Assembly: GCF_003334765.1 (NCBI RefSeq)
Contig: NZ_QOWT01000002.1
Length of the DNA stretch: 64,000 nucleotides
Direction: 5' to 3' (one strand)
Source of the DNA: Escherichia coli
GTDB lineage: Bacteria; Pseudomonadota; Gammaproteobacteria; Enterobacterales; Enterobacteriaceae
The notes beneath the pieces are model-generated. The model searched no databases, had not been told where the DNA came from, and worked only from the letters and a program-made list of their open reading frames with translations. A program made the position numbers and the translations under genes. Positions 53,609 to 54,774 of this stretch are shown here, piece after piece. How positions within the stretch are numbered: position 1 is the first letter of the stretch; every line of letters begins with the position of its first letter.

Positions 53609-54288
53609 TATTTGTCCTTAAACTATAAATAATTAAAATATAAACATTGCAATACATTGATTCAGTCAATAGCCAATGTTTATACCCAGCCATTGAATAC
53701 GGCATGCGATCCAAAAAAACAGGTCGTAAAAAATGTATTCGTTGGTGTGGGGTCGAATAGTGATGTTTTCACTCCCCTGATTCAATTTAATTTTACTAAT
53801 GAGTAAATGTAGATTTAATTAATATATTGATAGGGGAAAGATTATCTTAAGGATCTTCTAAAAAAACACGAAATATATATTTAGAAAAAACAGGAAGCAT
53901 ATCAACAATGAATGCCAATAGCTTAAAAAACAAACAATGAACATATAATGCGATTGGCATTAACCCGCTTTTGTCGATATAATATATAAACACTATAGCC
54001 AGAATTTAATCAAGTTTCAATTACGTCCTGCCTGATTATTCAACTCTATTTTCTCCATTATCTGTATTAATAAATGATAATGAGTGTCAAACAGACATTA
54101 TTCATTTCAACATGTAACTTTGGGCAAAATCAAGATACGCGCAGAAGAATACTTTCCGAATGAAAGTTAAAGGTGTTTTATTTATAGATGGGGAGAGTCT
54201 TCGATAGTAGTGAGGTTGACAGATATCCGCTGCCTGATGAGCAATTATGCCCAATGAATCTACCTCATTGGGCATAATTTGGAACTCA
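53609..54288. promoter_or_regulatory. AT-rich ~680-bp upstream region of the yfc fimbrial operon (likely promoter and nucleoid-protein silencing target)
   Basis: Long non-coding stretch with many A/T runs (e.g. aaaaaaca motifs) immediately upstream of yfcV; composition is typical of H-NS-bound fimbrial promoters (inference). Confidence 0.5.
54244..54279 (-). other. Perfect 15-bp inverted repeat immediately 3' of sixA
   Basis: aattatgcccaatga (54244-54258) and tcattgggcataatt (54265-54279) separated by 6 nt; flanked by shorter outer arms ctgatgag/ctcatcag; no U-tract. Confidence 0.5.
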
Positions 54289-54774
54289 TCAGATAGCTTT
54301 TGCCATCTTCAGATTACACGGGCTCATCTGCCAGTTGAATGTGCCGTTTCCGCTTTCATCAAGCGTTACGCTGGCAATGGCCGAGGTGGTAAACATAGGC
54401 GGCGTTTCGCCCGGACATAACTCGGCAACCAGATACCCGACTAACGGTAAGTGAGAGATCACCAGTACCGAAGCAACACCTTCATTGGTCAACGCCTGCA
54501 AATAGGCACTGACCAGACCAACATCGCCGCAGGGCGTTAACTCCGGCAGAACTTCTGCACTGGAAGGCAGGTTCAGACAATCCCCTACTTCTTCCAGTGT
54601 TTGCTCGGCTCGCAGGAACGGGCTCACCAGAACGCGTTCGATTTCCACTTTTTGACCTTTCAGCCAGTTCGCCATCAGGCGAGATTCGTCACAACCATTA
54701 GTGGTCAGAGGACGAACGGAATCACTGGCGGCATCGAGGGCTGCGTCGCCGTGACGCATGATAAAAACTTGCAT
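54289..54774 (-). CDS. sixA: Phosphohistidine phosphatase SixA
   Basis: 161-aa ORF matching SixA; N-terminal RHG catalytic motif (MRHGDA). Confidence 0.95.
   Translation of the reverse strand: MQVFIMRHGDAALDAASDSVRPLTTNGCDESRLMANWLKGQKVEIERVLVSPFLRAEQTLEEVGDCLNLPSSAEVLPELTPCGDVGLVSAYLQALTNEGVASVLVISHLPLVGYLVAELCPGETPPMFTTSAIASVTLDESGNGTFNWQMSPCNLKMAKAI

Follow-up and report, generated by a model that had tools for sequence, protein, structure and literature searches.

The question raised by the sixA locus is what purpose, if any, is served by a perfect palindrome that abuts the stop codon of the gene, and whether it acts as DNA or as RNA. The palindrome lies in the 64-kb stretch of Escherichia coli DNA that was analysed here as a whole (the window), and the stretch around it is E. 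coli K-12-like: sequence comparison found 0 differences from MG1655 across a run of 1933 bases that reaches from yfcV to the fadJ start, and 2 of 10,001 bases differ over MG1655 positions 2452000-2462000. Coordinates of NC_000913.3 are window coordinates plus 2,402,038, a mapping that was checked base by base. The sixA coding sequence (b2340; 54289-54774, minus strand) encodes a phosphohistidine phosphatase and terminates in tandem stops, TGATGA (54286-54291, minus strand). Its upstream neighbour is fadJ, and downstream, beyond an AT-rich spacer of 680 bp, lies yfcV (53045-53608, minus strand). Previous work by SMRT-Cappable-seq has placed sixA in a monocistronic transcription unit with a start site at 2456915/6, equivalent to window 54877/54878 (PMC6131387), and the yfcV region has been described as an H-NS-bound 'promoter island' (PMC3661553). 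The spacer also contains a near-consensus sigma-70-like site on the plus strand (TTGGCA-18-TATAAT, 11/12; 53954-53983), pointing towards sixA, and, at 2455977 (window 53939), a region of Rho termination listed for the plus strand (Adams et al., PMC7815308). Farther into the fimbrial genes, position 51227 in yfcU is G in the window and C in MG1655; the internal stop of MG1655 is thereby absent, and the fimbrial usher YfcU is an intact 881-aa open reading frame.

It is clear from the sequence that the repeat reported in the initial annotation is genuine: AATTATGCCCAATGA (54243-54257) and TCATTGGGCATAATT (54265-54279) are 15 nt each, 100% complementary, and positioned by the sixA stop as claimed, the one correction being that the spacer between them, given as 6 nt, is 7 nt long (ATCTACC). 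On the sixA-sense (minus) strand an additional G.U pair closes within this spacer, and the inner stem-loop of the sixA 3' UTR (54243-54279) is accordingly a 15-bp perfect stem plus one G.U, that is, a 16-bp stem with a 5-nt loop. This stem is GC-containing, begins 9 nt past the sixA stop at the end of the transcription unit, and has a folding energy of -21.4 kcal/mol. The outer arms that had been noted are present as well, CTGATGAG at 54234-54241 and CTCATCAG at 54285-54292, the latter overlapping the stop, which is in fact the tandem TGATGA; taken as an inverted repeat they extend to 54229-54241 and 54285-54297 (13 nt, 85% complementary). In the minus-strand RNA the first of these is the 3' arm of an outer helix (GCUCAUCAG...), inside which the mapped 3' terminus discussed below is located, and the second is the 5' arm, overlapping the tandem stops UGAUGA. 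The description of the stem as very stable was borne out by folding of the minus-strand RNA (-44.2 kcal/mol, z = -7.4), and the plus-strand RNA also folds stably (-36.6 kcal/mol, z = -5.7); none of 200 shuffles was as good in either case. The hairpin is the longest perfect inverted repeat with a loop of 3-10 nt in the 64-kb window, where the runner-up has 13 bp, and the longest in each of 30 locally shuffled windows reached only 8-11 bp. Two 13-bp perfect hairpins rank next in the window, one at 60626-60654, which coincides with a published primary 3' end of fadL (2462694-2462697), and another at 62173-62204, which has the A/T-run flanks typical of a bidirectional terminator.

The absence of a canonical U-tract, on which the initial annotation had also remarked, holds for both strands, there being no T-tract 3' of the hairpin on either one. 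On the minus strand T occupies 2 of the 8 nt past the stem (tail GCUCAUCA), short of the 7-8 nt by which the U-tract of a canonical terminator is recognised; the hairpin is also without an A-tract, and a consensus terminator scan called no terminator at this position. The T-score of the tail, 0.43-0.74, is the lowest of eight Escherichia forms compared and is set against 3.0-3.6 in the homologues from E. albertii and from two other E. coli alleles, L001 and L002.

The 3' end of sixA mRNA is already present, without comment, in public supplementary tables. The TRS data place the primary sixA terminus in a minus-strand peak at MG1655 2456271-2456282 (window 54233-54244), with the dominant position at 2456276 (window 54238), the A of GCUCA, and in the rows for earlier published datasets the position is 2456275 or 2456278 and the fold identical (PMC10687069). 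The fold given by those authors shows the sixA hairpin, with a longest U run of 2 and with 5 outer pairs left in the mature RNA, and their tables give no plus-strand terminus for the hairpin (PMC10687069). The mapped end at 54238 is 5 nt past the inner stem, and the steady-state end of the transcript is therefore located just 3' of a U-less stem-loop. The curated Term-seq list of Adams et al., which is thresholded, contains no 3' end at 2456270-2456330 (PMC7815308), and the TERMITe supplements, whose coordinates are possibly those of other strains, contain no sixA entry. On these data the palindrome acts as RNA, being the 3'-terminal stem-loop of the monocistronic sixA mRNA, and that it is non-random and functional at least as a 3'-end determinant of a kind that has already been described. 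At the other end of the transcript, the sixA leader is 103 nt long and includes a 12-bp hairpin, CCGUUUUCUUUC...GAAAGAAAACGG (window 54795-54878, minus strand). One 3' end maps to 2456833 (window 54795), 21 nt ahead of the sixA start codon, and another to 2456929 (window 54891) in the fadJ-sixA interval, 13-14 nt upstream of the start site (Adams et al., PMC7815308); these ends in or near the leader may reflect premature termination or processing there.

The position of the mapped end within the 3' arm of the outer helix would be consistent with its production by an endonuclease, for instance by RNase III, whose target would be the outer helix of 7-10 bp together with the inner one of 16 bp on which it stacks, and not by termination plus exonucleolytic trimming. 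Together the two helices amount to ~23-26 bp, interrupted by a single asymmetric internal loop, and so come close in length to a substrate of RNase III; the hairpin also resembles those processed by RNase III (phage T7 R1.1-type) in its long near-continuous duplex with an internal loop and in its location at the 3' end of the upstream mRNA. It is unlike them in having its internal loop on the 5' side and its 3' end within the paired lower stem. A staggered cut of both arms would, moreover, fall at the stop codon too and sever the mRNA from its hairpin, whereas the terminus is annotated as primary for sixA and reads from the 3' UTR exceed those from the coding sequence (PMC10687069). The outer helix is also imperfect in the sampled variant genomes, and overall we regard endonucleolytic formation of the end as very improbable.

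The origin of the hairpin is apparent from its relatives. In the L001 type of E. coli and in Escherichia sp. E1V33 the sixA stop is followed by AAAAAAUGCCCGAUGUA-AGCUG-UACAUCGGGCAUUU and then by GUCUUUUU; in E. albertii by AUGCCCGAUAUG-AGCAA-CAUAUCGGGCAU and then by UUCUGUUUU; and in the L002 type by AAGGCCCG...CGGGCCUU and then by UAUUUUUUU. All of these are canonical intrinsic terminators, as is the sixA terminator of E. whittamii. The distance from the stop to ATGCCC is 13 nt in both the window and the L001 form, placing the two in the same register, and a 29-nt ATGCCC...GGGCAT core is common to the window, L001/E1V33, E. whittamii, and E. albertii forms. In an alignment of four distinct sequences, on which the test of covariation is based, 90.6% of cells are paired, compared to 28-44% when the partners are slid, and 7 of the 16 pairs have changed on both sides, a number reached by 0 of 500 shuffles. 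The pairs formed by the flanking A-tract and U-tract have become AAUU/AAUU in the K-12-type hairpin and the remaining U-tract has become GCUCAUCAG, while the stem exceeds the ancestral one in length and in perfection of pairing. The hairpin of the window is like the canonical terminators past sixA in its position, register, ATGCCC...GGGCAT core, and discrete 3' end, but differs from them in having neither a U-tract nor an A-tract, in its AAUU/AAUU flanks, and in the rut-like tract that comes next. Judged by these comparisons, it is a derived, U-less form of a genus-wide sixA terminator. Beyond Escherichia, the sampled Enterobacteriaceae generally have some hairpin or REP element soon past the sixA stop, often a textbook terminator, as in Citrobacter, Kosakonia, and Phytobacter, but a REP-like element in Salmonella and some Citrobacter and a GC hairpin with a poor U-tail in Enterobacter. 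At several loci imperfect hairpins were overlooked by the perfect-stem hairpin finder, and the output of RNAfold was used there instead. The initial annotation had tied its interpretation to 3' ends at the hairpin and to conservation in related genomes, and both were found: 3' ends lie at the hairpin, and the helix is conserved across Escherichia via compensatory changes. Since the helix is conserved while the loop varies freely, its role would appear to be that of a folded single strand rather than of a sequence-specific protein site.

Within E. coli, four alleles account for 5388 of 5426 complete genomes (K-12 type, 3100; L003, 1226; L002, 633; L001, 429), and each has its own hairpin directly 3' of the sixA stop. 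The T-tract is gone from the K-12-type allele, and the L003 type has an intermediate tail. In ~43% of E. coli genomes homology with the window ends at the sixA stop codon, and the genomes that are not of K-12 type carry other alleles of the sixA-yfcV spacer and of yfcV, the fimbrial gene, there being at least four deeply divergent ones in the species. Searches with a 76-mer and a 37-mer found one site per genome, always at sixA, in 3097-3100 of the 5426. Of ~3100 carriers, 3096 have the 37-nt inner hairpin without any change, an invariance that is weak evidence for selection, as the flanks within the allele differ by only 0-5%. At least one mismatch to the 76-nt query occurs in 1066 of ~3100 carriers, and in all six of the sampled K-12-type genomes that differ from the window TGATGT replaces TGATGA, by which the second stop is lost and one pair of the outer helix is broken. 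Together, these variants and the 1066 mismatched carriers point to a looser constraint on the outer helix. To judge by the L001 and E1V33 forms, the T of TGATGT may be ancestral. In strain EC09 (locus L092, 2750-3551) the hairpin is interrupted by IS1A, alignment of the 37-mer being limited there to the 30 nt nearest sixA; in strain XJW9B277 another copy of IS1A is present in the spacer. Both are disruptions of the sixA 3' end peculiar to a strain.

These comparisons also bear on the proposal that the palindrome works as DNA or as a cruciform, whether as an operator for the yfcV promoter or for sixA or as a hotspot of recombination or insertion. It does lie at the edge of the AT-rich, H-NS-bound 'promoter island' (PMC3661553), homology between alleles breaks next to it, and in one strain an IS1A insertion falls within it. 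Nevertheless, pairing is kept across Escherichia while both arms change and the loop varies, unrelated hairpins or REP elements occupy the same position in other genera, and some 630 bp lie between the hairpin and the start codon of yfcV downstream. Its geometry, two 15-bp arms around a 7-bp spacer, does not resemble that of known operators, the palindrome is single-copy in each genome with none in phages or true plasmids, and an RNA 3' end of the sense strand maps exactly at the hairpin. We consider that a role as DNA has hardly any likelihood. The suggestion in the initial annotation of an operator for a dimeric regulator gains no support, on the same grounds, as it is the pairing and not the sequence that is conserved, with a free loop and unrelated hairpins elsewhere in the Enterobacteriaceae; the sequence-specific conservation of half-sites by which a transcription-factor operator would be recognised is not seen, given the compensatory substitutions in the arms and the unrelated hairpins of other genera. 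Several further identities were rejected. The hairpin is like REP/BIME elements in being an extragenic palindrome at a gene 3' end that is able to block exonucleases, but it is single-copy, lacks a REP consensus, and has a perfect, AT-richer stem; a REP/BIME or other dispersed repeat is discounted by its occurrence at one place per genome, always sixA, and the search for the 15-mer elsewhere that had been proposed found no second copy in the window. No Rfam 15 RNA family matches over the hairpin even at E <= 10. Nor is it a remnant of a mobile element, as there was no phage match and the three 'plasmid' matches are large records carrying the chromosomal sixA locus. Finally, two mirror-image 57-aa open reading frames (54102-54275, minus strand; 54247-54420, plus strand) have no counterpart among the NCBIfam families; they start at an ATG inside each arm, are by-products of the palindrome, and are not conserved in sequence in the other alleles.

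What lies beyond the hairpin may explain how an RNA without a U-tract comes to end there. A C-rich, G-poor tract, a candidate rut site, comes directly after it at 54158-54219 on the minus strand; its 19 C and 2 G in 60 nt place it within the top 0.07% when 60-nt windows are taken over the whole 64 kb, both strands included. Its C-minus-G excess is 17 in the K-12-type allele and 2-12 in the other forms among the eight of Escherichia compared. A minus-strand Rho termination region has been reported at 2456198, window 54160 (Rho score 9.29, p = 1e-41, bicyclomycin vs untreated; PMC7815308), a position where the C-rich tract ends, 78 nt downstream of the mapped 3' end. Reads upstream and downstream of 2456198, counted in 800-nt windows, were 136 and 73 in untreated cells and 148 and 738 with bicyclomycin (PMC7815308); as the downstream count (738) exceeds the upstream one (148), part of this signal must come from transcripts with starts in the de-silenced yfcV promoter island and not from sixA read-through. 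Rho is consequently the weak link of our explanation, the bicyclomycin signal being coarse and ambiguous, and full-text searches of the literature turned up nothing useful on sixA together with bicyclomycin, ProQ, or Hfq.

An obvious alternative is that the hairpin is still an intrinsic terminator, whose extended stable stem, perhaps aided by NusA/NusG, releases RNA polymerase within a few nucleotides of the stem in spite of the poor U-tract, with Rho as a back-up for leakage. The hairpin is orthologous to bona fide terminators, the 3' end follows the inner stem by 5 nt and the GGGCAU core by 11 nt, and when the structure is read as the GC core alone the tail becomes UAAUUGCU, in which some U is retained. 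On the other hand, termination by E. coli RNA polymerase is poor where a U-tract is lacking, and here the U run is at most 2, the tail score of 0.43-0.74 is far under those of the canonical homologues, the consensus terminator scan was empty, and a strong rut-like tract and a bicyclomycin-sensitive region follow immediately downstream. Mixed or transitional cases have been suggested by Dar and Sorek (PMC6061677), and while we think continued intrinsic termination unlikely, it deserves more than passing consideration. The hairpin now probably relies on Rho factor.

Taken together, the evidence favors, in our judgment with a reasonable though not a high degree of probability, a degenerate intrinsic terminator that is now the exonuclease-blocking 3' stem-loop of a Rho-terminated sixA transcript. 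The ancestor would have been a classical intrinsic terminator, whose helix was kept and even lengthened via paired substitutions while its U-tract became GCUCAUCAG. RNA polymerase would mostly read through the present hairpin, and Rho would load on the C-rich, G-poor tract from ~25 nt downstream, terminate sixA transcripts specifically, and release them within about the next 100 nt. PNPase and RNase II would then trim the RNA in the 3'-to-5' direction until halted by the very stable inner stem, and this trimming would make the 3' end observed 5 nt past the stem. The stem-loop would in turn stabilise the sixA mRNA by shielding it from decay, and the arrangement as a whole would keep sixA transcription away from the H-NS-silenced yfcV fimbrial promoter region. 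Among the roles offered in the initial annotation, that of a 3' mRNA stabiliser is the one that gains support, from the terminus 5 nt past the stem, the missing U-tract, the rut-like tract, and the bicyclomycin-sensitive region downstream; the operator is not supported, and descent from a canonical intrinsic terminator had been missed.

It may simply be that the hairpin is a neutral relic, a decayed terminator that blocks exonucleases as any stable hairpin does, without selection for sixA mRNA stability or for insulation of yfcV. The low divergence within the allele, which leaves the invariance of the hairpin less than compelling, the weak expression of sixA, and the wholesale replacement of the yfc region between alleles are all in keeping with this. 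A decayed structure would not be expected to be longer and more perfect than the ancestral form, as the K-12-type stem is; the allele that has lost its U-tract is also the one whose rut-like tract is strongest; and sampled Enterobacteriaceae generally retain some 3' structure past sixA. We therefore judge neutrality to be improbable and prefer a protective stem-loop at a Rho-dependent end.

Protective 3' stem-loops of Rho-dependent transcripts were reportedly first proposed by Peters et al. in 2012. Dar and Sorek in 2018 found that such transcripts end just past stable stem-loops lacking a U-tract, with a rut site just downstream and with trimming by PNPase and RNase II as far as the stem; they also put forward the idea that a change in U content could convert one type of terminator into the other (PMC6061677). 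The sixA hairpin is like the members of this class in its U-less stable stem-loop, its 3' end just past the stem, the C>G enrichment downstream, and, at a resolution of 800 nt, the bicyclomycin-sensitive transcription beyond. It is unlike the examples of that class in that its stem is unusually long and perfect and that it can be followed back to a canonical terminator; Rho dependence and exonuclease trimming belong to the class, and for sixA we infer them.

The coexistence of the alleles further raises the possibility that, at the sixA 3' end, a switch of terminator type is segregating naturally in a single species and at a single orthologous hairpin, an idea that we hold to be somewhat short of probable. 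Some 57% of complete E. coli genomes have the U-less K-12-type form, next to a strong rut-like tract, and this form presumably depends on Rho and is trimmed as far as the hairpin. The changes that perfected the palindrome are two A-U to U-A flips at the stem base and two compensatory stem pairs; such paired changes may have arisen by intrastrand template switching (quasi-palindrome correction), and the changes that perfected the palindrome may be the same ones that destroyed the U-tract. What appears to be new here, in a mild sense, is the polymorphism within a species between a canonical and a U-less form, coupled to the gain of a rut-like tract.

For the biology of E. coli, the favored explanation would account for two features of this locus, namely how the mRNA for SixA, which dephosphorylates histidine phosphotransfer proteins, has a defined and stable 3' end without a classical terminator, and how sixA transcription is excluded from the neighbouring silenced yfc fimbrial operon. 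Its wider value is modest, in that it adds one well-documented example to the U-less protective stem-loops known at Rho-dependent 3' ends. The four alleles that coexist in E. coli nevertheless offer a natural allele-swap system in which to study the interconversion of intrinsic and Rho-dependent terminators, and the switch, if true, would provide a direct, allele-swappable test of the conversion through U content proposed by Dar and Sorek.
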